A DNA stretch of 64,000 nucleotides from Bacteroidales bacterium (GTDB lineage: Bacteria > Bacteroidota > Bacteroidia > Bacteroidales > UBA12077). The DNA lies in NCBI GenBank assembly GCA_013138975.1, contig WTBR01000027.1, forward strand, positions 201-64,200, read 5' to 3'. The position numbers and the translations under genes were made by a program. The number at the start of each line of letters is the position of its first letter. The stretch's first letter is position 1. The notes under the pieces are model-generated. The model worked only from the letters and a program-made list of their open reading frames with translations. It searched no databases and had not been told where the DNA came from. Below are positions 14,510-40,400 of the stretch, one piece after another.

Positions 14510-17500
14510 CTATATATTAAAACCATCATCTAAATTTATATTGGTATTTACTTCTGTATACTTATGAGTAAATTTAATTTCTTCAAGCTTTCTATTTGGC
14601 GACTCAATAATTTTAGAAATTATTTCTTTTAAATAATAAGCATACTTTTCTATTGTTTGTTGCTTGAATAATTTAGAACAATAATCTATACTTATAAAAA
14701 GATTTTTCTCAAATTCCACACATGTAAATGTTATGTCAAAATGAACTTTAATTAGCTTTCCATAAATAAGTTCATCTGTATAATCATTTAATTGAGCTTG
14801 ATTTTGATTTAGAAAATTTATAATTACATCAAAAATGGGATTGTGACTTATATCTCGCTTTATCCCTAGTATATTTACTAAATCATCAAATTGATAATCC
14901 TGATTTTCAAAGGCTGAAATAGCTTTATTTCTAACATCCTTTAAGAATGAATCAAAACTTTTTTGCCCTTCAGGAAAATTTCGTAGAGGCAACATATTTA
15001 CAAACATTCCAATAACATTCTGCAAATCATTATGCCTCCTTCCACTAACACTCGTTCCTATAGTGATATCTTCTTGTCCACTCAGTTTAGATAAAAAAAT
15101 ATTAAATACTGCTAAAAGGACTATAAATAAAGTCGAATCACTTTCCCTTGCTATTTTGATAAGTTCTTTAGTTTCGTTTTCATTTAGGTAAAAACTTATA
15201 CTTGATCCTTCAAAATTTTGTACAACAGGTCGGACATAATCTGTAGGTAAGTTTAAACCTGAAAATTCTTTAACAAATTCATTTAACCAATACTCCTCCT
15301 GCTCCCTTATCTCAAATTGCTGTTTTTCTGTATTTTGCCATTCAGAATAGTCCTTATATTGTAGGTTTAAGGAGGGCAATTCTTCTCCTGAATACAATGA
15401 TTCAAATTCTTCCTTTAAGATTTTCTGCGAAGTTCCATCACTTATGATATGATGCATATCAATCATTAACAAGCTGTCTTCTCCTTTTATATCTACTATA
15501 GCTGCTCGTAAAAAAGGTGCTTTTGATAAATCAAAGGGCTTTATAAAATTATTTCGTGTGGTTTCAATTTCTGTGCTTTCTATACTTAGTTCTTCAAACT
15601 CAAACTCAACATCCCTACTTATAAGCTGAACAGCCTCACCATCAACTATAATTATGCTTGTACGGAAACTCTCATGACGATTTATTAGTTGTTTGAATAC
15701 TTCTTCTATTTTTAGCTTATCTGCCTCTTTTCCCAATGAAATTATAATGGGCATATTGTAGGCGGTTGAGGTCAAATCAATCTGCTGTAATAAGTATATC
15801 CGCTTTTGAGCAGAAGACATACTATAATTTGTCTTTTTTTCTGTCTTTAAAACTGATATAAAGAGCTTTTCATCACTTGATTTTATGTAATTAGCCTGCT
15901 GTTTGATTGTTCCATTTAGAAAAATATCTTTAAGCGAAAATTCTACTCCAATTTCTTTATGAATTGAACCCACTAATAAAATAGCTTTTAAAGAATGACC
16001 ACCTAAATTAAAAAAATTAGATGTCACACTAATTTCTTCTTGTGCTATATTTAATACTTTTGACCAAATTTCTGCGAGTTTCTCTTCTATTTCATTTGAT
16101 GGTTTTATATAATCTTCTCCAGCTTTTATTTCAGGAGTGGGTAATTTTTGTCGATCGACTTTTCCGTGATTAGTTAAAGGTAAGCCATCCATCTCAACAA
16201 AATATGAAGGGATCATATAATACGGTAAAGATTCTAGTAAATACTCACGAAGTTTTTCTTGATTAAAATTTTCTGCACATACTAAATATGCACAAAGAAA
16301 CTTATCATCATTTTCTTCCATGGCTAATACAATGCATTCTTTTACATTATTGAAACTGAGTAAGACATTTTCAATTTCTCCCAGTTCTATCCTGAAACCA
16401 CGAATTTTCACTTGCTCATCCACTCTTCCAATATATTCAATATTACCATCTGGTAACCATCTTGCCAAATCTCCTGTTCTATAAATTCTCTCGTTGTTCT
16501 TAAATGGATTTAAAATGAATTTTTCATTATCTAGTTCTGACTTGTTCATATATCCTCGTGCCAAACCAATGCCTCCTATACATAATTCACCGATAACTCC
16601 AATAGCAGATAACTTTAGATTTTTTGATAATATGTATATGGCTGTATTGTCTATTGGTTTACCTATAGGAATAGTCCTGCTTTTATCAACATCTTTACAA
16701 TCATAATATGTAACATCTATGGTTGCTTCGGTTGGACCATATAAATTTGAAATATTAATTTGTTTATTAAATTTGAATAATTCATTGAACTTCAACACAT
16801 CTTCTTTTCTTAATGCTTCTCCACTGCATATTACATGTCTAAGAAATAATAATTCCTCTGTATTATTTCCAAAATCTGATTCCAATACAATCAAAAACGT
16901 TTTTAACATAGATGGAACAAAATGAATTATTGAAACTTTACTATCAGCAATTGCTTTTATAATTTTTCTAGGTTCTTTTTCAGCTTCTGGTTCCAGTAAT
17001 ATTAATTTCGATCCACATATTGCCCATAATAACAATTCCCATACTGAAACATCAAATGTATATGGAGTTTTTTGGATAAAAATATCATCAGAAGAAACAT
17101 TATAGTAGTTCTTCATCCAACTTAACCTGTTAACCAATGACCGGCTCTCAATCATGGCTCCCTTGGGTCTGCCTGTGGTTCCAGATGTGTATATTATATA
17201 TTCTAATCTATTCCTTGTTGTTTGTTTACTATCTTTCTTAATATTAATATTTTCTTTATGCTCTATTTCATTTTCCAAGTATAAAGTATCAACTTTTATA
17301 ATAATACCTTTTGAATCCTTTTGGGTTGTAAGTAAAATTTCAGACTTACAGTCATTTAGAATATAATTAATTCTGTCTTTTGGATCTTTTGGTGAAATTG
17401 GTAAATAGACCCCTCCAGCTTTTAAAATTCCGAAAATCCCTACTAGCATTTCAATAGATCTATTTACCATTATTGGAACTACTTTATTTTCCTTTACACC

Positions 17501-19043: not shown

Positions 19044-22000
19044 TTAAATTTTATTTATAAGATTTTCAATCTGACCTAATTCTTCAATTGATAAATCATT
19101 ATATCCAACATCATTTGGTGTTATTTCTATTTTATCTTTATTACAACAATGATCAATAATTTCGATTAATGATTTTTCAAATTCTTTAGAAAGTCTTTTA
19201 ATCGTTTCTTTTTTGAACTCCAAGCCATTGAACTCCATTGAAAATGTAAAAACACCATTCATTAAAATACTGTTAATTTCCAATAAACCATTTCTTTCAC
19301 ATTCATCAGATATCTTTTTCCCAGAATCAATTTTCGAAATAGTAATGTCCTCCTTTGTTAATTCTTTAGAAAACTCCCCTAAATAATTGAAATTAATTTG
19401 AGGTTGATTATTAAAACTAACTTCCCGGTCCTTTGATGTTAAATATTGAAGTATTCCATAACCTATACCCTTATTAGGAATTTTTCTTAATGTTTCCTTA
19501 ATAAATTTAATATTATATGATAAATCAGAATTTTCAACATCCAATACAACAGGATATTGAGAAGTAAACCAACCAACTGTGCGTGAGACATTTACTTCTT
19601 TTAAAATATCTTCTCGACCATGACCTTCCAGGCTAATCAGAACCTTATTTATTTTTTGCCATTTTTTAATAGCTAACGCTAATGCTGTAAGCAATATATC
19701 GTTTATTTCTGTATTATATGCCTTGTTTACTTTGTACAATAACTTATCTGTATATTCTTTATTAATTTTAAGATATTCTACAGAAGTATTTTTTCTTTTA
19801 TTATCTATTTTTTCAATCTTGAAATCTGACACTAATTCCCTTGTATTTGTTTCGTCAATTTTTTTCCAGTAGTCCAGTTCTTCCAAAAGTTCATTACTAT
19901 TAGCGTAATCATTAAGTCTTTCTGACCAATATTTAAACGAATCAGTTTTATGTTTAAGTTTAATTTCTTTGTTTTGCAAAGCTAATTCATAAGCAGTAGT
20001 AAAATCTTCTATTATAATCCTCCATGAAACACTATCTATTACGCTATGATGAATTGTAATTAACACATGATCACCTTCCTTTACATTGAAAAGTCCTACT
20101 TTAACTAGAGGGCCGTTTTCTAAATCAATTGATTTCTGAATCATGTCACATTCTTTTTCAATCAATTCAACATGATCTTTCTTATCAGTAAAATCAAATG
20201 TATATAGATCGTAAAATGGTTCTAAAACAGGTCTATTATATTGTATAGTTTTATTGTTTTGTTTTGGGAAAATCATTCTTAAAGCATCATGGTGTTTAAC
20301 AATTGTGTCAAATGTTTTTTTCAAAGCTGGAATATTAATTTTATCCTTAGTAAAAAACATCACAGACTGATTAAAGTGATTAATATCAGTTAAAAAATTA
20401 TTGAAATACCAATACGTTACAGGGGTAAATAATACTTCTCCTTCTATAGTATCTTGAGGAATTATCCTATCAATTTTTGTTACAATGTCTTTTAATTCTG
20501 ATATTCTAGGATGGACAAACATATCTTTAATTTCTAACTTTAAACCCAGTTCCTGAGCATTACTAGAAATTTGTATTGCCTTTATTGAATCACCACCAAT
20601 CATGAAAAAATTATCATTAATTCCTATTCTTTCAACGTTCAATACTTTTTGATATATATCTACTAATATTCTCTCAGTCTCATCTCTTGGAGCTATATAA
20701 TCCTCAGAAGCTAATATTTCCGGTTCTGGTAACGCTCTCCTGTTCACTTTACCACTTTCTGTAAAAGGGATACTATCAATTTTGACAAAATAAATTGGTA
20801 TCATATAATCTGGCAAACTCTTTGAAAGATGTTCTTTTATTTCATGAAAAGATAACTCCTCTAATGAAACATAGTATGTACATAGGTATTTATCTTCGTT
20901 TAAATGTGTGCGTTCAATAACTATTGCATCATCAATTTTAGGATGATTTATTAAACACAATTCTACTTCTCTTAATTCAATCCTAAATCCCCTTATTTTT
21001 ACTTGTTGATCTTTTCTGTTAACAAACTCAATATTTCCATCAGGCAACCATTTTGCAATATCCCCTGTTTTATATAATCTTTCGTTTATTTCAAAATTAT
21101 TTGGAATAAATCTTTGATTAGTAAGTTCAATATCATTTAAATATTTCCTTGCTAATCCCACACCAGAGATGCATAATTCACCTTCTATTCCAATGGGTTG
21201 TAATCTTCCATTATTATTTAAAATATAAACTTTTTTATTTTCAATTGGTTTCCCAATTACTGGAGTTTTGGATGGATGTGAAGTAGGTAGTAATTCAGCA
21301 AATGTTGTCCAAACAGTATCTTCAGTTGGACCATACAGATTATATATTTTAAATGGATATTCTCTTAATGGATTTCTTCTAAAACAATCTCCTGCTGCCC
21401 TTATAGCTTTCAATGAAGATCTTTTCCCACTCCATTCATCCTCGAGTAATTTTTCGACCATATAAGTAGGTTGATATGAGATATTTACATGATTTTTAAT
21501 TAGCCACTTTTTCATTTTAAAAGGATCTTTCTGAATTTCATCATTTGCGATACACAAATTTCCCCCAGAAGTCAAACAAGGCCATATTTCAAATGACATA
21601 GCATCAAAACTGCAACTGGAAACCTGACTCATCCTTGAATTATGATCATTTTTAAAAATCCTTTTGTGGGATTGCACCATATTTACACATCCTTTATTTT
21701 CAATCAGAACTCCTTTAGGTTTTCCTGTTGAACCTGATGTGTAAATTATATATAACAAAGATTCAGGTTTATTATCATTATTGCCATTTTCTTTAAATTT
21801 GTTTTGAAATTCTAAGTCTTCAAATAAAAGAGTATCTTTATTAACAGAACCAGTTAAGTATTGATTTTCTGTAATTAAGATCTTTGCATCACTGTCATTT
21901 AAAATAAATTCTATTCTTTTTTCCGGATAATTTTTATCAATTGTTAAATAAGCTCCGCCAGCTTTTATGGTTCCAAGAATACTAACCAGCATATCTATAG

Positions 22001-22997
22001 ATCTATCTAATAAAATAGCTACAATAGATTCAGATTTTATTCCCTTTTCGCTTAAAATATTAGCTAATTGATTTGTTCTTTTATTTAATTCAGAAAATGT
22101 AATCTTCAAATCTCCATATTCGCAAGCAATTCTTTCTGGGTTTTTGGAAACCTGTTCATTAAATAATTCAATAATTGTTTTATCTGGAATATTGCAGTTT
22201 AATGTACCACTAAAATCATTTAAAACCTTGCTTTTTTCATTATCAGATAATAAATCTACTTCCGAAATTTTAACATCCAAATTAAATATAACTTGCTCCA
22301 ATAATCTATTAAAATGGCCTATTATTCTTTTAATTGTGCTTCTCTCATATAAAGATGAATTATATGAAAATTCTCCATATAACTCATTCCCTCTATTACT
22401 GAATATCAATTTAGTATTTAGTATTATATCTTTAAGATATTTCTCCTCATGAATATTTGAAAGTAATAATGCATTTGAAAATAATGGAAACTCTTTCTCA
22501 TTTGTAGAAAGATCTAATTTATATAATAATGAATCTATAGAGTAATTTTGATTTTCTATGTCCTTTATAAAATCTTCTCGCACCTTCAATAGAAACTCCT
22601 TAAACGTTAATTCTAAATTTATTTTATTTCGAAGTGCCAAAATAGTATTAACAAAATCACCATCAATATCTTGTTTCAAAACAGTTGTACCTATAATAAT
22701 ATCATTATTCGATGTATATTTCTCGATTAAAATATTCATTCCTGCCAATAATATCATATAAAGTCTAAAATCAGAATTATTGCTCAACTTAACTAACCTT
22801 TCATAAACTTCTCCTCCAATAACTAATGTTTCAATTTCTATTTGAGGATCAGTCTTCTTTTCTATCTTAAAATCATACGGGAAATATGATTTTGTTAGTT
22901 CTCCTGAAAACTTATTTAACCAATATTTTTCTTCTTTTGATCGATTATAAGTGTTGTTATTCTTATCTTCTAAATTATCTTTTTTCGCCATTTTCAA
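19044..22997 (-). CDS. NRPS subunit: half-C-A(unassigned code)-T-E
   Basis: 1317-aa ORF (the ATG two codons downstream of the TTG is an equally plausible start). N-terminal C-lobe only (EKYWLNKFSGEL..., DIIIGTTVL, FVNTILALRN, ENQNYS, PLFSNALL). A motifs IKAGGAYLTID and YIIYTSGSTGKPKGV (~21715-21760). T FFMIGGDSIKAIQ (Ser 20586-20588). E ITIHHSVIDSVSWRI (HH 20046-20051). The C-terminal tail ...LSIEELGQIENLINKI resembles a COM donor. Confidence 0.92.
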   Translation of the reverse strand: MKMAKKDNLEDKNNNTYNRSKEEKYWLNKFSGELTKSYFPYDFKIEKKTDPQIEIETLVIGGEVYERLVKLSNNSDFRLYMILLAGMNILIEKYTSNNDIIIGTTVLKQDIDGDFVNTILALRNKINLELTFKEFLLKVREDFIKDIENQNYSIDSLLYKLDLSTNEKEFPLFSNALLLSNIHEEKYLKDIILNTKLIFSNRGNELYGEFSYNSSLYERSTIKRIIGHFNRLLEQVIFNLDVKISEVDLLSDNEKSKVLNDFSGTLNCNIPDKTIIELFNEQVSKNPERIACEYGDLKITFSELNKRTNQLANILSEKGIKSESIVAILLDRSIDMLVSILGTIKAGGAYLTIDKNYPEKRIEFILNDSDAKILITENQYLTGSVNKDTLLFEDLEFQNKFKENGNNDNKPESLLYIIYTSGSTGKPKGVLIENKGCVNMVQSHKRIFKNDHNSRMSQVSSCSFDAMSFEIWPCLTSGGNLCIANDEIQKDPFKMKKWLIKNHVNISYQPTYMVEKLLEDEWSGKRSSLKAIRAAGDCFRRNPLREYPFKIYNLYGPTEDTVWTTFAELLPTSHPSKTPVIGKPIENKKVYILNNNGRLQPIGIEGELCISGVGLARKYLNDIELTNQRFIPNNFEINERLYKTGDIAKWLPDGNIEFVNRKDQQVKIRGFRIELREVELCLINHPKIDDAIVIERTHLNEDKYLCTYYVSLEELSFHEIKEHLSKSLPDYMIPIYFVKIDSIPFTESGKVNRRALPEPEILASEDYIAPRDETERILVDIYQKVLNVERIGINDNFFMIGGDSIKAIQISSNAQELGLKLEIKDMFVHPRISELKDIVTKIDRIIPQDTIEGEVLFTPVTYWYFNNFLTDINHFNQSVMFFTKDKINIPALKKTFDTIVKHHDALRMIFPKQNNKTIQYNRPVLEPFYDLYTFDFTDKKDHVELIEKECDMIQKSIDLENGPLVKVGLFNVKEGDHVLITIHHSVIDSVSWRIIIEDFTTAYELALQNKEIKLKHKTDSFKYWSERLNDYANSNELLEELDYWKKIDETNTRELVSDFKIEKIDNKRKNTSVEYLKINKEYTDKLLYKVNKAYNTEINDILLTALALAIKKWQKINKVLISLEGHGREDILKEVNVSRTVGWFTSQYPVVLDVENSDLSYNIKFIKETLRKIPNKGIGYGILQYLTSKDREVSFNNQPQINFNYLGEFSKELTKEDITISKIDSGKKISDECERNGLLEINSILMNGVFTFSMEFNGLEFKKETIKRLSKEFEKSLIEIIDHCCNKDKIEITPNDVGYNDLSIEELGQIENLINKI
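22278..22997 (-). other. N-terminal truncated condensation domain (C-terminal lobe only)
   Basis: Aligns with the region from the (E)YWL motif onward of full C domains in this window (for example C2 of the 1504-aa subunit: EEYWLNEF...DITIGTSVSGR...FVNMLPLRN...ENQDYQFDDL...PIFDV). No HHxxxDG. The upstream intergenic gap is only 168 nt. Confidence 0.7.
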
Positions 22998-23165: not shown

Positions 23166-24857
23166 TTAGAAACTAAAATCACCTTCATCCAATAAAGTTG
23201 ATTTTAAACTACAAATTTCTTTAAACTCTTTATTTTCAGAAATTATGTCATTTCTATTTTGGAAATCGATTAATGAAGGAACAGCATTTTTATGTAATTT
23301 CATCCATCTTTCATCTGCAAATTGAATCTCATACAATGAATAAGGGTTAGGTATTCCAATATTTTTACAGTGTTCAACAAACCTTGAAACTCTATCATAT
23401 GTTTCCTTTCGAGACGGTTCACAATTTATAGTCCAAGATTCCATCATTAACATATCCTTTGCTTCTGCCGGATAAAGCAATTTTCTTTGTTTAACCCATT
23501 TTACTGAATCTGCTTGTCCCGTATATGCAAATATAAATGGGTTGCACTCTGTTTCCCAGATATAATTTCTCATTTCCGAAACAAAATCTAAGGTTTGTTG
23601 AAAATCTTTCTCTGTTTCTCCGGGGTGTCCTATGACTATATATGCAGTAGTTTTAATTCCAGCTTTTGCGAGAGCAGATAGGGTTCTTTTTGATTGTTCA
23701 ACTGTAATATTCTTCCCCATAAGATCAAGAACATTTTGAGAGCCACTTTCAATTCCAATTCTAGCGCGATAAAAACCCCCTTTTCTCCACTTAAGTGTAT
23801 TTTCAATTTTGCCACTCTCATCATCAACCCTTAAATAACCATCATAATATAACGATACATTCCTTGATATAAATTCTTTTGCCAAATCATCAATAATTGG
23901 ATTTAACAATGCATCATTCATGAAAAACATTTGATGCCCATACTTTTCATATAATTCAACCATTTCATCTACAGTTTGATCGACTGGTTTCTTTGTATAC
24001 TTTCCGTAAAATGTTGCTACATTACAAAAACTACATTGAAAAGGACAACTAGATGATCCTTGCGCTGCTAAATACGTATAATTTTGTCTGACATTGAAAT
24101 TACTCATATCCGGAAAATTCTCAAGAGACTCGTTTAGTTCTTTTTCACATATATCATTTAATGTAAAAACTTTCCGATCGTTAGGCAACTCTCCATTTAA
24201 TAATTTTAAGAATAAACCTTCACCTTTTCCAATTAAGATATTATCTATAAAAGGAGTTTTATCTATAAAATTCTTAAAATTGGGGGTGTCTTTGATTAGA
24301 TGATCCGAAAAGATACTTCCGCCCATTACGGTCATTATATTTGGATTTTTTTCCTTTATTAGTTTAAATATATATAATGATGGTGCAATTGTATCACGCA
24401 ATACAGAGATTCCCAATACATCAGGATTAAATTCATAAAATATTTTTAAAAAATAACTTTCTAATTGTTCAAAAAACTCATCTAGAATATTTTTTAATTC
24501 ATATAGAAATGATTCATCATTTTTGTAATAAAAGGTGTTAAATATTATAAGATCCAATAATTTGATATATTCGGTTTCATCAACATAATTAATATGAGCC
24601 ATCATATGATCTCTCATTACATTATGACCTAAATTATATAAATTACTAAGATTGTACTCAGGTATTGCATTTTTTAAGGTATTAAAATACCTGTCGTATA
24701 TTGATTTAAATTGACTCTCAATATTTGCATCTATTGTATAGACTGAGTGTCCATTTTTTTCGAGAGCACTTTTTAAATATGTAATTCCCTGTGGTGGAAT
24801 TAATGGTGTCCAGTATGGCAGTAAACCAAGCAGTACCTTCTTTTTATTATGTAACAT
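23166..24857 (-). CDS. B12-binding-domain-type (class B-like) radical SAM enzyme, stand-alone
   Basis: 563-aa ORF. N-terminal B12-binding-like region (VLLGLLPYWTPLIPPQGITYLKSALEKNGHSVYTIDANI...PDVLGISVLRD...TVMGGSIF...ILIGKGEGLFLKLL). CxxxCxxC motif SCPFQCSFC at 24024-24047. GFYRARIGIESGSQNVLDLMGK motif. Paralogue of 12794-14482. Confidence 0.85.
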   Translation of the reverse strand: MLHNKKKVLLGLLPYWTPLIPPQGITYLKSALEKNGHSVYTIDANIESQFKSIYDRYFNTLKNAIPEYNLSNLYNLGHNVMRDHMMAHINYVDETEYIKLLDLIIFNTFYYKNDESFLYELKNILDEFFEQLESYFLKIFYEFNPDVLGISVLRDTIAPSLYIFKLIKEKNPNIMTVMGGSIFSDHLIKDTPNFKNFIDKTPFIDNILIGKGEGLFLKLLNGELPNDRKVFTLNDICEKELNESLENFPDMSNFNVRQNYTYLAAQGSSSCPFQCSFCNVATFYGKYTKKPVDQTVDEMVELYEKYGHQMFFMNDALLNPIIDDLAKEFISRNVSLYYDGYLRVDDESGKIENTLKWRKGGFYRARIGIESGSQNVLDLMGKNITVEQSKRTLSALAKAGIKTTAYIVIGHPGETEKDFQQTLDFVSEMRNYIWETECNPFIFAYTGQADSVKWVKQRKLLYPAEAKDMLMMESWTINCEPSRKETYDRVSRFVEHCKNIGIPNPYSLYEIQFADERWMKLHKNAVPSLIDFQNRNDIISENKEFKEICSLKSTLLDEGDFSF

Positions 24858-24958: not shown

Positions 24959-27900
24959 TTAAAATTGAAATTCACCAAATAATTCTGTAGAGTTTTTTAC
25001 AATTATATCTTTCCGATGTTGACCTATTTTTAAATCTCCGATTGTATCTGATTTTTCTTCAATAATTTGCCTTGATATTTCAATAAAATATTTTAACAAA
25101 TTTTCTGCTGTTTCTATTTTATAAAGACTTGTAAAATACAATAGATTTAATAATATTTCATCCTTAAACTCTTGAACCCTAAACAATAAACTAAAATCAG
25201 CTTTTTTAATTTCCTTTCTAAGATCCATATTGTTTGATGAAAATTGAAGATCACGTGTTTTCGTACTTATATTATTAAATTCTAATACAATACCAAATAA
25301 CGAATCTTTATACATCTTTCCCTGCTTTCGTAATTTCACAATTAGTTCATCTAACGGATATTCCTGATTATCGTATAATTCAACAAGCTTATTATTTACT
25401 TCATTTAAGTAATTTATTATCTTTTTATCATATTTTGGATTAGTCCTTACGGGTAATATATTAACAAAATATCCAACTATATTTAGTAACTCCACAGATC
25501 TTCTTCCATTAACTACAGAACCAATAATTATATCCTCTTCTTGAGTTAATACATGAAACATCAGCTTGCACACTCCCAGAAAAAAGGAACTCAAACTAAT
25601 ATTTCTTAGTCTTACAAAAGACCTAATTTTTGATGTCAAATCTTTATCTATAAAATTTTCAACTAACTCATTTTTTAAAAAATGATTCTTTTTATCAAGA
25701 ATATCAGGTTTCAGATTTAAGACATTACTATTTTCTTTCAATTCACTCAACCAATATTTTTCCTGCTCTAAAATCCTATTCTTAAACAATATACTATGTT
25801 GCATTTCCGAATAATCTTTATATTGGTATTTTAATAAGTTTAATTTTTCTTTTTGTAATAGTTTATATAAGTCGTTAATAAGAATTGTAATTGAAACGGC
25901 ATCTGTTATAATATGATGAATATCAATCAATAATTGCATCTTGTTATTTTCATCTTTTAGAACACCTAATCTAACTAGAGGAGCCTTATCTAATTCAAAT
26001 GGTCGTATAAATTTTACTAAAATTTCATCAAGCGAATTATTCTTATCCTTTTTATATTTTTCAATATTTATATCTATATTTTCTGATATTTTCTGATATA
26101 TTTTCCCATTTAAATTAATAAAACTAGTTCTTAATATTTCATGTCTTAATATTAATTTATTAAATACACCTTTTAAAATATTTAAGTCAATGTCAGAATC
26201 AATTACAATTCTATCAAATATGTTATATTTTAAGCTAGCTTTATCAAACTGCTGAACAACGTACAATCTCTTTTGTGCAGATGACAAGGAATAATACTCT
26301 TTTTTCTCTGTAAAATAATATTGTGATTTTATTTTTCTTTTTTGTTTTACAATAAATAAAGACATTTTTTCAATTGTTTGCATGTTAAAAACATCTTTAT
26401 ATGAAATTTCCACTTGTAACTTTTTATATATTGCGGAAATTAAAATTGTAGCATTTAAAGAATTACCCCCTACATCAAAAAAATTATCTGTAGTTCCTAT
26501 TTTTTCTATAGAAATCTCTAATACTTCTGACCAAATTGATGTCAACTGTTTTTCGATATATGTTGAAGGTTCTTTATAATCAGAATCCAAATTGACCAAT
26601 GGATATGGAAGAGCCTTTTTATCAATCTTTCCATTTGATGTTAAAGGTAATTTTTCTAATTCAATAAATTTAGACGGAATCATATAATTTGGCAGCTTTG
26701 TTCCCAAATATAATTTAAACTCTGAGATCCCTATTTCGTCAAACTTATTTCTAACGTAGTATGCACATAAATATTTATTTCCGAATTGATCTTCATTTAC
26801 TGTAACAACTGATTCATTAACTCCTACATATTTTTCTATAAAGCTTTCAATTTCACTTAATTCAATTCTATTCCCTCGAATTTTCACCTGATCATCTACC
26901 CTTCCTACATATTCAATATTTCCATCGGGTAACCATCTTGCTAAATCACCTGTTCTATAAATTCTTTCTTCATTCTTATGCGGATTTAAAATAAATTTTT
27001 CATTGTCCAGCTCTGATTTATTCATGTATCCTCTTGCTAAGCCAATTCCTCCTATATATAATTCCCCAATAACTCCGACAGCACATAACTTCAGGTTATT
27101 TGATAATATATATATTTCTGTATTATCTATCGGTTTACCTATAGGAACTGTCCTATTTTTATCAACATTGTTACAATTGAAATAAGTAACATCGATAGTT
27201 GCTTCAGTTGGACCATATAAATTAGAAATGTTTAATTGCTGATTACTTTTGAATAAGTCATTGAATTTCAGTACATCTTCTTTCTTTAATGCTTCCCCAC
27301 TGCATATTACATGTTTTAAAGTTAATAGTTTGTCTATATTCTTTTCCAGATCCGATTCAATAACATTTAAAAATATCTTGAGCATTGATGGTACAAAATG
27401 AATAATTGAAACCCTGTTGTTGGCAATTGCTTTAATTATTTTACTTGGTTCTTTTTCTGCATCCGGCTCCAAAATTCCTAATTTCGCTCCGCATATTGCC
27501 CATAAATACAGTTCCCACACCGACACATCAAAAGTATAAGGAGTTTTTTGAATAAATATATCCTCGGAAGAAACATTGTAATAATTTTTCATCCAATTTA
27601 ACCTGTTGGATAATGACCGACTATCAATCATCACTCCTTTAGGTCTACCAGTTGTTCCTGAAGTATAAATTATGTATTCTAATCTATTATTTTGTGTATT
27701 ATTATTATCTATTTTAAAATTTCTAATTACTTTACTTTCAATTTCATTTTCCAAGTATATCAGATCAATATTTGAGTTAAAGTCATTCGAATCTTCTTTT
27801 GTTGTAAGTAAAACATCAGCCCCACTATCTTGTAGAATATATTTAATCCTTTCTTCGGGATCTTTTGGTGAAATTGGTAAATATGCCCCCCCTGCTTTTA

Positions 27901-32661: not shown

Positions 32662-35600
32662 TTAAGCATCAAATAAAGAATCTAATTCGTTTTGAGATAT
32701 CTCTTTGTAAGTAAAGTCACTTGGCGAATATTCTCGGTCATCTTTATTTAAACAAAAATTTATAATGTTATTTAGGCTTACATTAAAGTTTTGTATTAAG
32801 TTATTAATTACTGAATCAGAGAACTCTTTTTTACTGAATGTAGCACTAATTTCTAATCTATCTTTTATAATTATTCCTGTAAATCCAAGTTTAAATTGTC
32901 TTTTTTCATTATAATTTAGTAAATCCCCCATGTTTTCATACGATACTTTAAATGGCAAATTGCTTATATCTTCACCAAACTGCCCTAAGTAATTGAAAAA
33001 GATTTCTGGCAAAACAGTAGTACTATTATTATCTTTTTTCTCTGGAGTTGTTAAAAAGTTTAATATACCATAACCAATACCTTTATTAGGAATTTTATGT
33101 AAGTTTTCCTTAACGTTTTTTATGTGATCCGATAAATCATTAGATTCTTCAACATCAATAAAAATTGGAAATAATGATGTAAACCAACCCGTAGTTCTAC
33201 TTAAGTTTAATTCCTTAAAAATATCTTCTCTGCCATGCCCTTCCATTGCAATTGCTATTTTTTGCATTTTGAAAGTTTTGTTTAATCCTAAGCATAAACC
33301 CGTGATAAGTATATCATTTATATTTGTTCCAAAAGCATTATTTACTTTTGTTTTTAAATGGTGAGTAGTTTCTTTTGAAAGTGAAAAAGATATAGATCTT
33401 GAATCCAAAACACCGCTCTGTTCACTATTATTAATGTCTAATTTAATGGGATGAATTAAAGGTTTACTATTCCAATAATCAATTTGTTTAGAAAATTCTT
33501 CAGAATTAGCATAATCCTTTAATTTCTTTGCCCACAATCCGTATGAGGTTTCTTCTGAAATTATCTCTAGTTTTTCTTTGTTCATATACTGTTCATACAA
33601 CATTCCCATATCTTCCATAAGAATTCTCCACGATACTGTATCAATTGCCAGATGGTGAATAACGATAAGTATTCGGGTTTCTTTATGCAAATGAAATAAT
33701 CCAATTTTCATCATCGGACCTTTCCCCAAATCTATTCCTTGCTGGATAATGTTGGATTTTTCTTTTATATATTCCTCTGTATTTTCACATCCAACACAGT
33801 CAAATTTCAACAAAGATAAAGGAAGATCTCCTGAGAGAATTTCCGGTTGTATTATCCCATTAACATTTTTATATACCGTTTTTAAGCTATCATGTGTATT
33901 TTGAATTTTAAAAAACATTTCCGTTACCATTTTTTCGTCTAAAAAACCTTCTTTCGAAATAACAATTGATTGATTGAAATGATTTTTATGAATAATATGA
34001 TTACTGAAAAAATATTCTTGTATAGGAGTTAATGGTATTTTACCAACCATTTTAGAATTTGTGGTCTTTTTTATATTATGTAATATCTTAGATAAGTCTC
34101 TAATTGTTGGATATTCAAAAATATCTTTTATTTTTATTTGGTATCCCTCTCTATTTATTTTTGAAATCAACTGAATTGATTTTATTGAATCTCCGCCCAA
34201 TCTAAAAAAACTATCATCAATTCCCACTCCTTCTATTCCGAGTGTAGATTCATAAATATTAATGAGCATCTGATCACGATCGTTTCTTGGGGGCACATAT
34301 GTATCTTTTTTCAATAAATTTGGTAATGGCAAAGCCTTTTTATCCACTTTCCCATTAGAAGTTAAAGGAAAAACATCAAGTTTTGTAAAAAAAGCAGGAA
34401 TCATATATGTCGGAAGTTCATTTAATAGTTGGCTTTTTAAAACTTCCTCGTCAATTTGTAAATTTGAGAGATAATAAGCACTTATATATTTATCACCATG
34501 TGCATTGTATTTAATTGATACGGCGACATCTTTTATATCAACAAATTCCCTAATACGTTTTTCTATTTCGCTGAGCTCTATTCTATAACCTCTAATTTTA
34601 ACTTGCTCATCTTTTCTTCCTAAAAATTCAATATTACCATCATCTAACCAACTAACGATATCTCCAGTTTTATAGATAATATCATTATTCAAATAAGGGT
34701 TTTCTATAAAATTAGTTGATGTTAATTCCGGATTATTTAGATATCCTTTTGCAATTCCTATTCCTCCCAAACACATTTCCGCTGCAACACCTTTAGGTAC
34801 CAATTTTTCATTTCGAGGATCTAGAATATAAACTTTTGCGTTTGATATCGGTTTTCCAATTGGTATATTTTTAGAGTTTTTTTCTACTTTAAAACTTGTA
34901 CTTACAACTGTTCCTTCTGTTGGTCCATAATTATTAAATAATTCGTATGTAGAATTGATAGTTTGTAGTTTATCTCCTCCTGTAAGCAAACACCTTAAGT
35001 AATTTCCTTCTGAATTTTGAATAAACTGCTCACATATTGGAGTTGGTAAAAAGCTTATAGTTATTCCTCTTTTTTTAAATGTTTTATGAAGTAGATCAAC
35101 TTCCAATTTTATAGATTTATCTATTAATAAGATAGAAGATCCTTTTATTAAGTAAGGAAAAATCTCCCATACAGAAGCGTCAAATCCCAAACCTGCATAT
35201 TGAGTTGTTTTATCAAGGCTAGAAACTTCATAATAATCATTATGCCAGTGACATAAATTTGCTAATGACTCATGGCCAATTATCACACCTTTTGGAGTTC
35301 CAGTTGTTCCAGATGTATACGTTATGTAAGCCACGCTATTTTTATCATAATTTACAATTACATCATGATTTTTGTGTTTATTCAGTACTGATAAATCGTG
35401 TCTATTTTTATTCCTTTTAACATTTTTCTGAGTAATATTATTTTTATCAATCTTTAAAATTACATCATAACGATATTTTGTAAGTTCATTTTCTATACAA
35501 AATATCTTATCTGAGAACTGAATATTATTAATTTCGGAAAAATCAATAAATAAATCATTAAAAAACTGACGAGATAAAAATAATTCTTCTGAAAAACTTA

Positions 35601-37398
35601 ATTTTGTTCTATAGTCTTTATCTTCATTATTCTTTTTAAAATTTATTAAATCCTGTATCATTCTATCTTTCTGTTCCAGATCCATTATATCTCCCAGAAA
35701 TATCAATCCTTTGTTGCCTGTTAGTTTTATACAGCTTTTTATTACATTCCTTAAATAATTATGACCATGAAAAGCTTGAATAACACTATTTATAATAATT
35801 ATATCAAAATCATTTTCCAGTATTTTCTCAATATCATGAGCGGGCAAGCATTCTAATTTGATATTAACAATTTTATTTTTTACAATATATTCCCTATTCC
35901 AATCTAGAATACTTTCAGATAAATCTGTTCCATAATATGATTTCACTTTAGGAGAAATTCTGTACATACTGATACCAGAAGCACAACCAATTTCTAAAAC
36001 TTTAATGTTTTCATTTAAATATGGATCTATTTTTTTTAATACGTTATCACCATACTCATCCATTTCATCTCTGGAAAAAGGTTTACCTGTAAAACTATTT
36101 AACCAACCTCCTCCTGTTATATCATCTATTGCATTTTCACCTACATGTTCCCAAAGTTCCTTATTCATTAAATTACTTTTATCACTTTCTTCAACAGCAT
36201 CTATATCATAGGTATCTGTACATAAAAATGTTTCTAAACAATTGCATTGCCATTGCAACCTGTTTAAAAGCCTTATATGCATTTTTTGAGAAATGACAAT
36301 ACGAATATTAGCATCATCTATCATGAATTTCAACCTGTTCTCTGGCAAATCAGTAGGAAGAGGGACAAACGCACCTCCTGACTTTAAAATACCAATAAGT
36401 GCAACCATTCGGTCATATTCACTATCCATTAAAACTCCAACAGGTTGATTTTTTGATAATTTATGTTCATCAATTAGATAATTGGCCAATTTATTAGAAT
36501 CTGAATTTAACTGAGTATAGGTCCAAAAATTATTATTCTTTATGATTGCAATATTATCTGGAGTTTTTAACAATTGATCATAAAACAACTTTACCCAATT
36601 TTCATTATCTGAATGTTTAATCTTGTTTTCATTTAGCACAGTCACTAACTCATTCTTTTCAAATTCATTTAGAAAATCAATTTCATTAATAGTTAATTCA
36701 TCAGGATTAGCTAATCCTATTTCGAGAATATTAATGTAATGATTTACAATTTTATCAATTCTTCTTTCATTATATAATTGTGGATCATATTCGATATTTA
36801 ATTCCAGATTCTCTGATTCACGAAAAAAAGAAAAAATAAAATTTGACTTTATGGAATTTAAAGATTTTCTATCATGTATATTTTCTAATAAAATACTAAC
36901 AGAAACTAACTCTTTAGTAAAATTCTTATTTTGTTTTAAAAAAGCTATTACCGGAAAATTCTGATTCTTAGTAGCTTCAATGATTAATTGTTTTGTTTTT
37001 ATTAACAAACTTTTAAATGTTTCATCCTCATCAATTCGGTTTCTCACAATTAAGATTGAATTTAGAGCTTCTTTTAATTCTTTACGTTCAAGTACAGGAC
37101 AAGTAATACTTATATCATTTTTTCCTGAGTATCTATACAGTAAGATATTTAATATATTAGTAAGAATAGTAAATAACAAATGATCAGAATTATTACTTAA
37201 TTTAAAAATCTTCTCAGTAATTGTTTCATTAAATATGAACTGTTTCAGTTGCAAAGAATCTGAACTTTTATAAGAATTTCTGAGAAAACTACTAAATAAA
37301 AAATCCCCTGAAAGTACATTTTTCCAAAATTCCTTTTCTTGTTTTTTTTCACTAATCACCAATAAATCATTACCCATGTTATTTTCACTTTTCATCAT
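32662..37398 (-). CDS. NRPS subunit: half-C-A(Leu-like code, interrupted by a class I SAM methyltransferase between a2 and a3)-T-E
   Basis: 1578-aa ORF. N-terminal C-lobe only (EKEFWKNVLSGDF..., NDISITCPVL, KNQNFPV). a2 ILKSGGAFVP (~36361-36395). MT motif VLEIGCASG at 35974-36000, preceded by ELWEHVGENAIDDITGGGWLNSFTGKPFSRDEMDEYGD. a3 AYITYTSGTTGTPKGV (~35286-35331). Code DAW(S/F)LGNVVK. T FFRLGGDSIKS (Ser 34186-34188). E IVIHHLAIDTVSWRI (HH 33652-33657). COM-donor-like tail ...ISQNELDSLFDA. Confidence 0.92.
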   Translation of the reverse strand: MMKSENNMGNDLLVISEKKQEKEFWKNVLSGDFLFSSFLRNSYKSSDSLQLKQFIFNETITEKIFKLSNNSDHLLFTILTNILNILLYRYSGKNDISITCPVLERKELKEALNSILIVRNRIDEDETFKSLLIKTKQLIIEATKNQNFPVIAFLKQNKNFTKELVSVSILLENIHDRKSLNSIKSNFIFSFFRESENLELNIEYDPQLYNERRIDKIVNHYINILEIGLANPDELTINEIDFLNEFEKNELVTVLNENKIKHSDNENWVKLFYDQLLKTPDNIAIIKNNNFWTYTQLNSDSNKLANYLIDEHKLSKNQPVGVLMDSEYDRMVALIGILKSGGAFVPLPTDLPENRLKFMIDDANIRIVISQKMHIRLLNRLQWQCNCLETFLCTDTYDIDAVEESDKSNLMNKELWEHVGENAIDDITGGGWLNSFTGKPFSRDEMDEYGDNVLKKIDPYLNENIKVLEIGCASGISMYRISPKVKSYYGTDLSESILDWNREYIVKNKIVNIKLECLPAHDIEKILENDFDIIIINSVIQAFHGHNYLRNVIKSCIKLTGNKGLIFLGDIMDLEQKDRMIQDLINFKKNNEDKDYRTKLSFSEELFLSRQFFNDLFIDFSEINNIQFSDKIFCIENELTKYRYDVILKIDKNNITQKNVKRNKNRHDLSVLNKHKNHDVIVNYDKNSVAYITYTSGTTGTPKGVIIGHESLANLCHWHNDYYEVSSLDKTTQYAGLGFDASVWEIFPYLIKGSSILLIDKSIKLEVDLLHKTFKKRGITISFLPTPICEQFIQNSEGNYLRCLLTGGDKLQTINSTYELFNNYGPTEGTVVSTSFKVEKNSKNIPIGKPISNAKVYILDPRNEKLVPKGVAAEMCLGGIGIAKGYLNNPELTSTNFIENPYLNNDIIYKTGDIVSWLDDGNIEFLGRKDEQVKIRGYRIELSEIEKRIREFVDIKDVAVSIKYNAHGDKYISAYYLSNLQIDEEVLKSQLLNELPTYMIPAFFTKLDVFPLTSNGKVDKKALPLPNLLKKDTYVPPRNDRDQMLINIYESTLGIEGVGIDDSFFRLGGDSIKSIQLISKINREGYQIKIKDIFEYPTIRDLSKILHNIKKTTNSKMVGKIPLTPIQEYFFSNHIIHKNHFNQSIVISKEGFLDEKMVTEMFFKIQNTHDSLKTVYKNVNGIIQPEILSGDLPLSLLKFDCVGCENTEEYIKEKSNIIQQGIDLGKGPMMKIGLFHLHKETRILIVIHHLAIDTVSWRILMEDMGMLYEQYMNKEKLEIISEETSYGLWAKKLKDYANSEEFSKQIDYWNSKPLIHPIKLDINNSEQSGVLDSRSISFSLSKETTHHLKTKVNNAFGTNINDILITGLCLGLNKTFKMQKIAIAMEGHGREDIFKELNLSRTTGWFTSLFPIFIDVEESNDLSDHIKNVKENLHKIPNKGIGYGILNFLTTPEKKDNNSTTVLPEIFFNYLGQFGEDISNLPFKVSYENMGDLLNYNEKRQFKLGFTGIIIKDRLEISATFSKKEFSDSVINNLIQNFNVSLNNIINFCLNKDDREYSPSDFTYKEISQNELDSLFDA
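35420..36180 (-). other. Embedded class I SAM-dependent methyltransferase (NRPS M-domain type) in the a2-a3 loop
   Basis: The a2-to-a3 spacing is ~345 aa, against ~68 aa in uninterrupted A domains of this window. SAM-binding motif VLEIGCASG. The W..S..G.P....EM.E motif is typical of NRPS M domains. Confidence 0.8.
36703..37398 (-). other. N-terminal truncated condensation domain (C-terminal lobe only)
   Basis: Residues ~15-232 are homologous to the other two half-C regions and to the C-terminal halves of full C domains. There is no HHxxxDG. The upstream gap is 80 nt. Confidence 0.7.
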
Positions 37399-37478: not shown

Positions 37479-40400
37479 CTAAAAAGAGAAGTTCGAATCT
37501 GAAAAAGATGAATCACTTACTATCATTTCTGTTGATAGCTTTATATCCTTCAGTAAAATATTTTTATCCTCAATAACCTGATTAAAAATCTTTTCTAAAT
37601 AATTTCCAATCTGCTCTATAAACAATTGCGAATAAGCATTTTTATTATATTTAAAAGATACTACCATTTCATCTTCATCAAATATTCTAATATCCATATC
37701 ATAATTTGTTGGATCAGAAATTTCAATTTTGTCAACTTTAATTTCGTTATTGGCTGAATTGTATAAATTAGTATCAGAAATATCTAATTTCTGATAATTT
37801 TGAAATCCCAAAATATGATCAAAAAGTTTTTCTTCAGAGGATTTCATCTTATTAATTTTATCTAATGGGAAATGGTGATGAATTTCACTTTCTAAAGCTT
37901 TTGACTGAATCTTTTTAATCAATTCAATAAAACTAGATTCTAGTTCTAATTGAATTCTTACTGGAATTGTATTAATAAATAATCCTAAAATTGATTCTAC
38001 TCCACTAATTTCAGAGGATCTACCTGAAACAACTATTCCAAATATAACATCTAATTTATCATTAAGCTTTGAAAGCAATAATCCCCACACTGCATGAAAT
38101 AATGTATTTAGTGTTACTTGAGCATTATTAGAAATCTGTTTTAAAATCGTTGTATTTTGATTTCCAAGAGAAATCTTATAATTCCCTTCATCATAAGCGA
38201 TCAATTCAGGTTCTGTTTTCTTATAATGTGATAGACTAGAGTTTTGTTTAAAGCCATCTAAATATTTACTCCAAAATTGTTCACTTTCGTTACTTTCAAG
38301 TTTATTAATCCATTTAATATAGTTTTTGTATTGTGTTGGATGTTCTAGACTAATTTTTCTACCAAGAGTTAATTGCCCATAAATCTCAGTTAATTCTTTT
38401 ACAATAATTCCAATACACCATCCGTCCATTAAAATATGATGAAAACTCCATACTAACTTATAATTTTGTTCAGCAGTTTTAAAAACATATACTCTCATTA
38501 GAACGTCCTTGCTTAAATCAAATGATTTTTCCTTATCATTCTTCATCAATTTATCGATCAATAATTCTTTCTCATTTTTATCATATATTTCAGTCAAATC
38601 TTGATAATTAAATTCAATTTTTCGTTCTTTTAAAACAACTTGCAAAGGAAGATCAACGTTTTCGTGAACAAATACAGTTCTTAATATATCATGTCTTTCA
38701 ATAATTTTATTAAAACTATTTCTTAGAACTTCGATTTTTAGATCCCCAGAAAGTGGTATCACAGATTGAATATTATATGAAGGAGATGTTTCGTATAATG
38801 AATGAAATAAAATACCTTCTTGTAATGGTGCTAACCTATAAATATCTTCAATATCAAATTTTGCACTTAAGTGATCCAGATCGTGAATGGGTAATCCCTT
38901 ATAAGTTAAATCTGATGGTGTTAATATTTTATCAGGAACATTAATGCAATGACTTATAATATCTTCCAAAGACTTCTGGTAATTATTAAGTAAGCTAAGA
39001 ACAAATTCCTCAGTGTAATATTTCTTCTTATAATTAAGAGAAATTGATAATTTACCACCTGCAAGTATACAAATGACTGAAAAATCCGAATTTGTAGTTC
39101 TATTTAAACTAACTGAATCACCGCTACTTTCATCTGCCATTCTAAACTTAGTCATTTGTGCAACATCTGAGTCAAATTGACCTAAGTAGTTGAACTCAAC
39201 ACCCATTTTATCATCAAACTGCATATCTTCCTTTAATTCTTCTGGCGTTAAGTATTTTAGAATACCATAACCAATCCCTTTTTGAGGCACTTGACGCAAG
39301 CTCTCTTTAACTTGTCTTAATTGTAATGATAGGTTATCTATTTGTCTCACATCAAGCAATACAGGATAAGCAGATGTAAACCAACCAATTGTTCTACTTA
39401 CATCAATATCTGGAAAAATATCTTCGCGACCGTGTCCTTCAAGATAAACAAGTACTTTTTCATTACCAAAAGTTTTTCGAATACTAGAACCTAATCCACA
39501 AAGAAGAATATCATTTATTTCTGTTCCATACGCTTGGTTTGTTTGAGTTATTAACTGAGTAGTTGTTTTCTCATCAAGAGAAAACTGCATGCTCGCTCTT
39601 TCGTTAATTTTTATATTTTCATGATTAAGATCTCGTTTTAACGGTAAAACCTCTTGATTAACAATTTCATTCCAAAATTCTTTTTGTTTTAGAATCTGAT
39701 CACTTTCTGCATATTTTGTTAATTTTTCAGACCAATCTTTAAATGAGTTGTTTTTTAATGGTAATGAAAGTGCTTGTCCTTTTTTTGCTTGTTCGTAAAG
39801 CATTTCTATATCTTCAAATATAATTCTCCATGAAACTCCATCAGTTACAAGATGGTGAATTACAATTAATAATCTATCTCCATCATCTAAGTGAAATAAT
39901 CCTAACTTCATTAGCGGTTCATTTTCTAAATCTATTGATCTTTGAATTTGATTAGCATAAGCTGTTAATTTCTCTTTAGCTTCACTCTCACCTTCAAGAT
40001 TGTATATGTTAAGTGAGATTGGAAAATCTTCTATTCCTTTATTATATAAACTAAAGCTTCCCTTATTTCTTTTACTTACAATTCTTAAAGCATCATGATG
40101 ATCCTGTAGTTTTCTAAATACCTCTTTTAAAATATTCTCATCAATTCTTTCTTCTGAAAACAACATTACGGACTGATTAAAATGGTGCATATCAATTTGA
40201 TTTTCAAAGAAAAAATGCTGTATAGGAGTTGGCTTAATATCACCACTTACATTATCTTGTGAAACTTCCTTTGTTTTCAATTTTACCTTAGTTGCCAAAC
40301 ATGAAATAGTTGGATTTTCAAATATTTCATTAACTCTAATAAGATAACCTTTCTCACTCATTTTTGCTTGTAACTGAATCGCTTTTATTGAATCACAACC

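Follow-up and report, generated by a model that had tools for sequence, protein, structure and literature searches.

C-lobe-only condensation domains at split nonribosomal peptide synthetase modules of a Bacteroidales bacterium, with a candidate docking role

The window analysed here is a stretch of 64,000 nt from a Bacteroidales bacterium of the UBA12077 lineage (GenBank assembly GCA_013138975.1, contig WTBR01000027.1, positions 201 to 64,200 of the forward strand). One long minus-strand nonribosomal peptide synthetase (NRPS) gene cluster with a guanine plus cytosine content of ~27 % fills it. Three of the encoded subunits, g4, g7 and g10, begin with only the C-terminal lobe (C-lobe) of a condensation (C) domain, here called half-C (hC), placed directly before the adenylation (A) domain. 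These hC domains are part of a conserved, monophyletic family of non-catalytic C-lobe descendants that have kept the C-A linker and are found strictly at protein N-termini. The family marks a recurrent split-module junction, in which a subunit ending in a thiolation (T) domain, a C domain and an acidic tail is followed by an optional gene for a B12-radical-S-adenosylmethionine (SAM) enzyme with the same tail, and then by a subunit beginning hC-A-T. It is somewhat probable, in our judgement, that hC serves as a non-catalytic platform for the A domain and as a docking domain that receives the tail where C and A have been split. The family is apparently undescribed, as well as widespread.

The half-C domains as a family

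The two-lobe Condensation profile (PF00668, ~450 aa) is incompletely covered by g4, g7 and g10, with only its C-lobe half represented. Residues 18–252 of g4 correspond to profile positions 191–456 (E-value 1.8e-19), residues 18–258 of g7 to positions 190–455 (2.3e-31) and residues 10–252 of g10 to positions 188–456 (7.2e-26). All three are thus cut at one point, the boundary between the N-lobe and the C-lobe. An earlier sequence-only reading of this stretch had described the three subunits as opening with the C-lobe alone and had proposed the PF00668 alignment as a check, which bears the description out. It was also right that HHxxxDG is missing: neither HHxxxD nor any HH occurs in the first 275 aa of g4, g7 and g10. 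The half-C motifs that it listed are present in g7 and g10, but are degenerate in g4 (FW, DISIT and NQNF, with PLF absent). The intergenic gaps upstream of g4, g7 and g10 are 80, 168 and 24 nt, as given there; in-frame stops are found 0, 17 and 5 codons ahead of the respective starts, and no N-lobe is encoded in any other frame upstream of the three genes. The start of g7 is possibly the ATG at 22991 and not the TTG at 22997.

A word-indexed homologue search with the g7 hC alone returned no match at E-value <= 1e-5, and an exhaustive search of representative proteins was needed. A profile built on the three window copies was therefore searched against 1.84 billion representative proteins. Among the best 150 matches, 74 are multimodular NRPSs starting hC-A-T-C; the cut point is the same in these 74 (position 175–180 of a 424-aa C domain), and they have in common the N-terminal motif AAxQxxKE[RK][ED]YWLxKLSG. 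The 77 N-terminal hC matches among the 150 representative proteins have a median score of 339 bits with the hC profile, against 138 bits for internal C-lobes (n = 671), none of which reaches 230 bits. A neighbour-joining tree of 190 lobes places every one of the 70 hC copies, the three from the window included, in a single clade. Genome loci hold 99 hC copies and metagenome contigs hold more, with constant architecture and a mean column identity across phyla of 45 %. The window copies are 31–33 % identical to each other pairwise and 19–31 % identical to the C-lobes of full C domains; they are as far from each other as from copies of other phyla, yet all are intact.

When 70 hC copies are compared with 118 full C-lobes, 29 positions that the latter conserve prove to be lost from hC. 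The Arg of the AGR motif drops from a frequency of 0.99 in full C-lobes to 0.10 in hC, and the Asp of KFDL, RDxSRN and RP...G are likewise lost. In complete C domains this Arg pairs with the Asp of HHxxxDG, and AGR (through its Arg), KFDL and RDxSRN supply residues that line the tunnel or touch the N-lobe. The hC domains additionally carry a deletion of 4–8 aa ahead of the FVNT motif and have conserved residues of their own (Y94, K133, P153 and H228 in g7 numbering). The C-A linker, LS..EK..LL..FN.T...YP, is common to hC and internal C domains and absent from terminal C domains; a search for interface residues that hC and internal C domains keep and terminal ones lack returned this linker and no position in the lobe body. 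The g7 hC matches positions 2–223 of TIGR03443 (Lys2), which is the N-terminal ADA region, with an E-value of 8.5e-15, and the g10 hC matches positions 44–222 (2e-9). Among solved structures, the best relatives are C-lobes, including those of TycC, LgrA and Txo. In AlphaFold2 (AF2) modelling of g10, the hC core has a predicted local distance difference test (pLDDT) score of 80–93; the model of hC with the A core has a pLDDT of 70 and a predicted template modelling (pTM) score of 0.53, from an alignment of nine sequences, all from the window.

The split-module junction and its shared tail

A survey of genomes for the same N-terminal architecture, which the sequence-only reading had suggested, yielded 154 hC loci from genomes and metagenomes together. 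The genome scan, with one genome per species, gave 74 loci in 24 genomes; the locus scan was run with an 8-sequence alignment, a 37-sequence alignment being too diverse. Most genome loci are in metagenome-assembled genomes (MAGs) of Aminicenantes and other Acidobacteriota, Omnitrophota, Clostridia, Halanaerobiales, Deferrimicrobium, KSB1 and Bacteroidales, and the hC-bearing genomes belong mostly to anaerobic lineages. The junction is also present in three isolates, Wukongibacter sp. M2B1, Paenibacillus assamensis DSM 18201 and Clostridium frigidicarnis DSM 12271. An exact-sequence look-up of g10 returned no record, and none of the loci compared is the DNA of the window itself.

Within the genome loci the position of 86 hC genes could be assessed. 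Directly upstream of 43 of them is an NRPS open reading frame (ORF) with a full C domain at its end; a further 28 follow a B12-radical-SAM gene that is itself preceded by a C-ending ORF, six follow a radical SAM gene whose own upstream neighbour could not be assessed, and only two follow a T-ending ORF. The independent scan of metagenome contigs (84 assessable) gave 37, 28 and 6 for the first three classes. Overall, ~80 % of assessable hC genes follow a subunit that ends in a full C domain, either directly or via a B12-radical-SAM gene. Counted from the upstream side, 78 of ~90 C-ending ORFs are followed by hC (at once, or after an intervening radical SAM or other gene) and 8 by an ORF that starts directly with A. 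Other genes lie within the junction in 7–10 further cases and encode a class-III aminotransferase, a PP-loop enzyme or other radical SAM enzymes. Junction-inserted genes are located at 8579–9964 of locus L026, 9684–11081 of L028, 18763–19860 of L047, 7956–9916 of L004 and 4320–7409 of L057, and the C/hC junction seems to be a favoured insertion point for tailoring genes. About half of the hC junctions are without a radical SAM gene, and recruitment of such an enzyme therefore cannot be the sole role of hC.

In the window, the subunits upstream of g4, g7 and g10 (g3, g5 and g8) do end in full C domains, as had been noted from the sequence; the immediate neighbour of g7 and g10 is, however, a radical SAM gene (g6 and g9, respectively). 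The C-lobe motifs are all kept in upstream terminal C domains, with the Arg of AGR at a frequency of 1.0. If the hC modules use the terminal C domains of these upstream subunits, the assembly line has exactly one full C domain for each A-T module. By this count hC is surplus, and the only candidate catalysts are the terminal C domains: those of g3, g5 and g8 presumably carry out condensation for the g4, g7 and g10 modules, respectively.

The C-ending ORFs before hC carry an acidic stretch of ~20 aa that ends exactly in [FW]x[FILVY]-COOH, typically as DFGF, DFEF or DFNF. This ending is present in 61 of 71 terminal C ORFs of genome loci (86 %) and in 55 of 65 of metagenome contigs. Free-standing radical SAM ORFs have it in 33 of 35 cases (94 %) in genome loci and in 34 of 35 in metagenome contigs, compared with 4 % of the background ORFs of the same loci and 18 % of other NRPS ORFs. 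In the window g3, g5, g8 and g6 end exactly in the motif, and g9 has DFNL followed by a final Val. The terminal motif is kept in several phyla on both the C domains and the radical SAM enzymes; outside it, the tail varies. C/A junctions without hC (loci L020, L022 and L060) have a different conserved upstream tail, ..(F)NDDLENE[FG]. The general mark of a docking pair, a conserved upstream C-terminal motif co-occurring with an N-terminal element, is found at the hC junction. Known docking elements were not: PF18563 (TubC_N) has no match at the N-termini of g4, g7 and g10, and tails of the communication-mediating (COM) type (SPSDF, TPNDV) were not found before hC in the window.

The free-standing enzymes g6 and g9 are 43 % identical and combine a B12-binding domain with a radical SAM core, the domain composition of class B (cobalamin-dependent) radical SAM methylases. 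The CxxxCxxC motif is at aa 271 in g6 (CPFQCSFC) and at aa 267 in g9 (CYMQCEFC). Their closest family matches are the C-/P-methyltransferases TIGR03975, TIGR04479 and TokK, with no family cut-off reached; the top NCBIfam matches (BchE, PhpK and a RiPP C-methyltransferase) are all far under their cut-offs. In one locus (L017, Omnitrophota MAG JBLMYT010000028.1, 8309–14824) a radical SAM enzyme is fused in frame to hC-A...T, and the DFxF tail is absent. This fusion, a single MAG case, offers a Rosetta-stone hint of an interaction between the radical SAM enzyme and hC.

Under the reading that we favour, the upstream terminal C domain would catalyse the peptide bond, because the count of one full C domain per module leaves no other candidate, and the T domain of the hC subunit would be the acceptor. 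The hC domain would retain the platform formed between C-lobe and A core, as do ADA and C* in Lys2 and ACVS. It would also be the receptor of the shared C-terminal tail, and hence an N-terminal docking domain for the upstream subunit as well as for the trans-acting radical SAM enzyme. The likely reaction of the latter is C-methylation of the thioester, aminoacyl or peptidyl, that the T domain of the module carries, before or around condensation. In C domains the C-lobe latch extends the sheet of the N-lobe with additional strands, and most of the contact with the donor carrier protein is made by the C-lobe (PMC10510592); the same literature is consistent with the structural background invoked by the sequence-only reading, that the C-lobe forms most of the C:A interface. 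Strand addition of the latch type, or a carrier-domain contact, is a possible binding mode of the tail or of a carrier domain on the orphan C-lobe. The wider proposal, that hC and the acidic tail constitute an unrecognised NRPS docking system for split C/A junctions, in which the same tag orders subunits and recruits trans-acting cobalamin radical SAM enzymes to the substrate bound to the carrier of that module, is more tentative, and we place it slightly short of probable.

Several observations weigh against this reading. Docking of the tail onto hC is inferred, and binding to the A or the T domain, or to another partner, is conceivable. The tails of the window, NFSF in g3, EFQF in g5 and GFNI in g8, are weaker than the consensus. 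Mutual information between tail and hC columns was not significant in 74 cognate pairs (p = 0.155), a comparison of low power. Where a radical SAM gene is part of the junction, two tails face a single hC, which is unexplained. The AF2 model of the g10 hC with its A core matches C-A didomains across both domains in Foldseek, but at a root-mean-square deviation of ~10 Å, so that the model supports the hC fold and does not confirm a canonical hC:A interface. C/A splits without hC exist, and hC is therefore not strictly needed to split a module. Additionally, co-inheritance of whole cassettes could inflate the co-occurrence counts. The earlier suggestion that hC stabilises the A domain has support from homology only, in the retained C-A linker and the match to the Lys2 ADA region. 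Its companion suggestion, that hC receives a partner, gains comparative support from the tail that terminal C domains and radical SAM enzymes share and that tracks hC, and from the tail-less radical SAM-hC fusion, with hC as the putative receptor of the tail.

Among the alternatives, the most serious is that hC does nothing more than activate or stabilise the A domain, in the manner of ADA or C*; the tail would then dock elsewhere (A core, T domain or radical SAM enzyme) or have another role, and the link between hC and tail would reflect shared ancestry of the junction cassette. The Lys2 match of the g7 hC, the retained linker and the undetected covariation in the 74 pairs agree with it, and ADA and C* are known to be necessary: the N-terminal ADA region was reported necessary for adenylation in Lys2/NPS3, and deletion of the ACVS C* abolishes the function of the first module (PMC7884236). 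We nevertheless regard it as unlikely. It does not account well for one terminal motif kept on two unrelated families (C domains and radical SAM enzymes) in several phyla despite variation in the remainder of the tail, for the different tail at junctions that have no hC, for the strictly N-terminal position of hC, or for loss of the tail once the radical SAM enzyme is covalently joined to hC.

The remaining explanations are far less probable. Truncation exactly at the lobe boundary, together with other mosaic domains in the cluster (A domains interrupted by radical SAM, methyltransferase and acyltransferase domains), might suggest that hC is a neutral scar of recombination within a C domain, cut as in engineered exchange units and with no function of its own. 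This is disfavoured, and very improbable, given a single clade with its own conserved residues and 45 % mean column identity across phyla, a constant architecture over the 99 genome-locus copies and those of metagenomes, and window copies that have diverged from each other as much as from those of other phyla and are still all intact. That hC supplements the C-lobe of the upstream C domain, or stands in for it, giving a composite condensation site split over two proteins, would fit the constant adjacency of hC and upstream C domain in the assembly line; it is rejected as highly unlikely, since the upstream terminal C domain is complete with all its C-lobe motifs, and it is exactly the tunnel and active-site positions that hC is without. 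An assembly error, frameshift or mis-called start, with genes that truly encode full C domains, has a negligible probability. It is refuted by stops in all frames, by the mere 24–168 nt of intergenic DNA and by an identical truncation point in the three window genes and in >170 homologues from independent assemblies, complete genomes included, and the earlier view that g4, g7 and g10 are not frameshifted pseudogenes stands.

The assembly line of the window

Domain architectures were taken from Pfam scans and a local phmmer domain map. Four weak C-like matches are epimerization (E) domains, with EGHGRE and FNYLG present.

Table. Subunits, half-C domains, terminal C domains and inserted domains of the window (dock, N-terminal docking domain; empty cells, no value given).
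Feature	Coordinates	Strand	Architecture or extent	Remarks
g1		minus	...C-A-T-C-A-T-C-A-T-C-A-T	interrupted by window edge
g2		minus	dock-C-A-T-C-A-T	
g3		minus	dock-C-A(radical SAM/B12 and methyltransferase inserts)-T-E-C	
g3 A domain, early insert	42759-44270	minus	aa ~652-1155	radical SAM core, then B12-binding domain
g3 A domain, second insert	40701-41624	minus	aa 1534-1841	methyltransferase
g3 terminal full C and tail	37482..38849	minus	PF00668 profile 2-448	HHILMDG; tail ...SDSSFSDSNFSF
g4	37398..32662	minus	hC-A(methyltransferase insert)-T-E	
g4 hC	36643..37398	minus	aa 1-252	then C-A linker and A domain interrupted by methyltransferase
g4 A domain, insert	35467-36201	minus	aa 400-644	methyltransferase
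g5		minus	C-A-T-C-A-T-C	
g5 terminal full C and tail	24962..26302	minus	PF00668 profile 2-447	HHIITDA; tail ...NSTELFGEFQF
g6	23166..24857	minus	B12-radical SAM enzyme, 563 aa	between g5 and g7; PF02310 and PF04055; ends ...LLDEGDFSF
g7	22997..19044	minus	hC-A-T-E	
g7 hC	22224..22997	minus	aa 1-258	then A-T-E
g8		minus	C-A-T-C	
g8 terminal full C and tail	14513..15835	minus	PF00668 profile 2-448	HHIISDG; tail ...NINLDDGFNI
g9	12794..14482	minus	B12-radical SAM enzyme, 562 aa	between g8 and g10; PF02310 and PF04055; ends ...FDTDWDFNLV
g10	12769..10202	minus	hC-A-T	
g10 hC	12014..12769	minus	aa 1-252	then A-T
g11		minus	dock-C-A(acyltransferase insert)-T-E-C*	
g11 A domain, insert	6602-7993	minus	aa ~716-1179	PKS-type acyltransferase (PF00698, E-value 1e-36)
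g11 last C-like domain	2795-4120	minus	aa ~2010-2447	HQAIMDA
g12		minus	MacB-type permease	

The reading frame of g1 is open to the window edge (63949–64000), and its residues upstream of the listed start, KLFRTESINRFISYFK, are the end of a C domain. This makes the listed TTG start (63948) artefactual, with the assembly line extending past the window.

Three kinds of subunit junction occur in this one assembly line: the TubC_N beta-hairpin, COM-like tails between E and C domains, and the tail/hC junction. Docking domains of the TubC_N type are at the N-termini of g2, g3 and g11 (near 52690, 46223 and 10138), with PF18563 matching g3 and g11. COM-like C-termini are SPSDF in g4 (near 32665) and TPNDV in g7 (near 19047), located before the full C domains of g5 and g8.

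Several A domains of the cluster are interrupted. That of g3 is split twice; in its early insert the radical SAM core and the B12-binding domain are in the reverse (circularly permuted) order with respect to g6 and g9, and its second insert lies near the A8-A9 region. Radical SAM domains inside A domains are also found in P0041, P0100, L007, L010 and L061. The methyltransferase of g4 occupies the same early site as the radical SAM insert of g3, and many hC-family proteins have inserts of 270–540 aa at this site. In g11, the acyltransferase, of the polyketide synthase (PKS) type, is preceded by a fragment of the ketosynthase-acyltransferase (KS-AT) linker (CurL-like_PKS_C) and is flanked by only the first ~76 and the last ~240 positions of the A-domain profile. 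To our knowledge, A domains are very rarely interrupted by an acyltransferase. The last C-like domain of g11 follows an E domain and has Gln in place of the catalytic second His of HHxxxDG; no thioesterase domain follows it within g11, and it may be a non-canonical release domain.

Relation to known systems and significance

Isolated C-lobes without N-lobe or HHxxxDG, N-terminal and directly before an A domain, are known from the C* of ACVS and the ADA of fungal Lys2/NPS3 (PMC7884236), and by analogy hC probably shares their role in supporting the A domain. These precedents belong to initiation or stand-alone modules with no upstream C domain, whereas hC opens elongation modules and is almost always paired with an upstream subunit that ends in a full C domain and tail, often with a radical SAM gene between the two. 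Recognisable C5-C7-like motifs are also retained in hC, while C* and ADA keep only C6 or C7. The C* of ThdA in thermoactinoamide biosynthesis is similarly an N-terminal, truncated and presumably inactive C domain before the first A domain; unlike hC, it was described as a remnant, probably inactive, within a starter module, and is accompanied by neither a partner C domain nor a tail nor a tailoring enzyme (PMC7253712). The N-terminal C-lobe-only domain type is thus already known, and what is new is the junction context and the probable docking role.

A 2021 review of NRPS docking describes the COM helix-hand (E/C junctions), the short linear motif (SLiM)/beta-hairpin (TubC_N) and the PAX three-helix classes, and a class of the tail/hC type is not among them (PMC9113145). 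As in those systems, a short upstream C-terminal motif is combined with a dedicated downstream N-terminal element. The tail/hC pair differs in its location at a C/A junction and not at T/C or E/C, in its putative receptor, a C-lobe of ~240 aa where the others have a 50-aa beta-hairpin or a helix, and in the presence of the same tail on a trans-acting tailoring enzyme.

Engineered exchange units (XU and XUC) and split NRPSs were reportedly developed by Bozhüyük et al. (2018, 2019). The natural junction resembles the XU in placing the subunit boundary in the C-A linker, and hC resembles the start of the XUC unit, C(Asub)-A-T..., at the boundary between N-lobe and C-lobe. Unlike XUC units, the natural upstream units do not stop after the N-lobe but include the whole C domain, which brings the C domains at the junction to one and a half.

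Like g6 and g9, CysS of the cystobactamid pathway, a carrier-protein-directed cobalamin radical SAM methylase, is a B12-binding enzyme found alongside an NRPS (PMC7966384, PMC12846815). A literature search, incomplete for subscription journals, found no elongation-module hC with a terminal full C domain, no such tail, and no docking tail shared with a radical SAM enzyme. We know of no description of a conserved C-terminal tail that CysS has in common with NRPS subunits.

The hC family accounts for 'truncated C' annotations (antiSMASH-type) in many NRPS clusters of anaerobes. If the docking role holds, the tail/hC junction would be a fourth natural way to join NRPS subunits, with the module cut between C and A. 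This is also where engineers recombine modules, and the hC junction would keep the A domain on its native C-lobe platform. The tail would likewise be a portable address label for tailoring enzymes on the assembly line, and the pair of tail and hC could be transplanted to split oversized synthetases or to bring tailoring enzymes to a chosen module. The combination of hC, tail and B12-radical-SAM gene is a signature for clusters with cobalamin radical SAM chemistry on NRPS intermediates, and the chemical space that such clusters represent in uncultivated Aminicenantes, Omnitrophota and Clostridia is for the most part unexplored.

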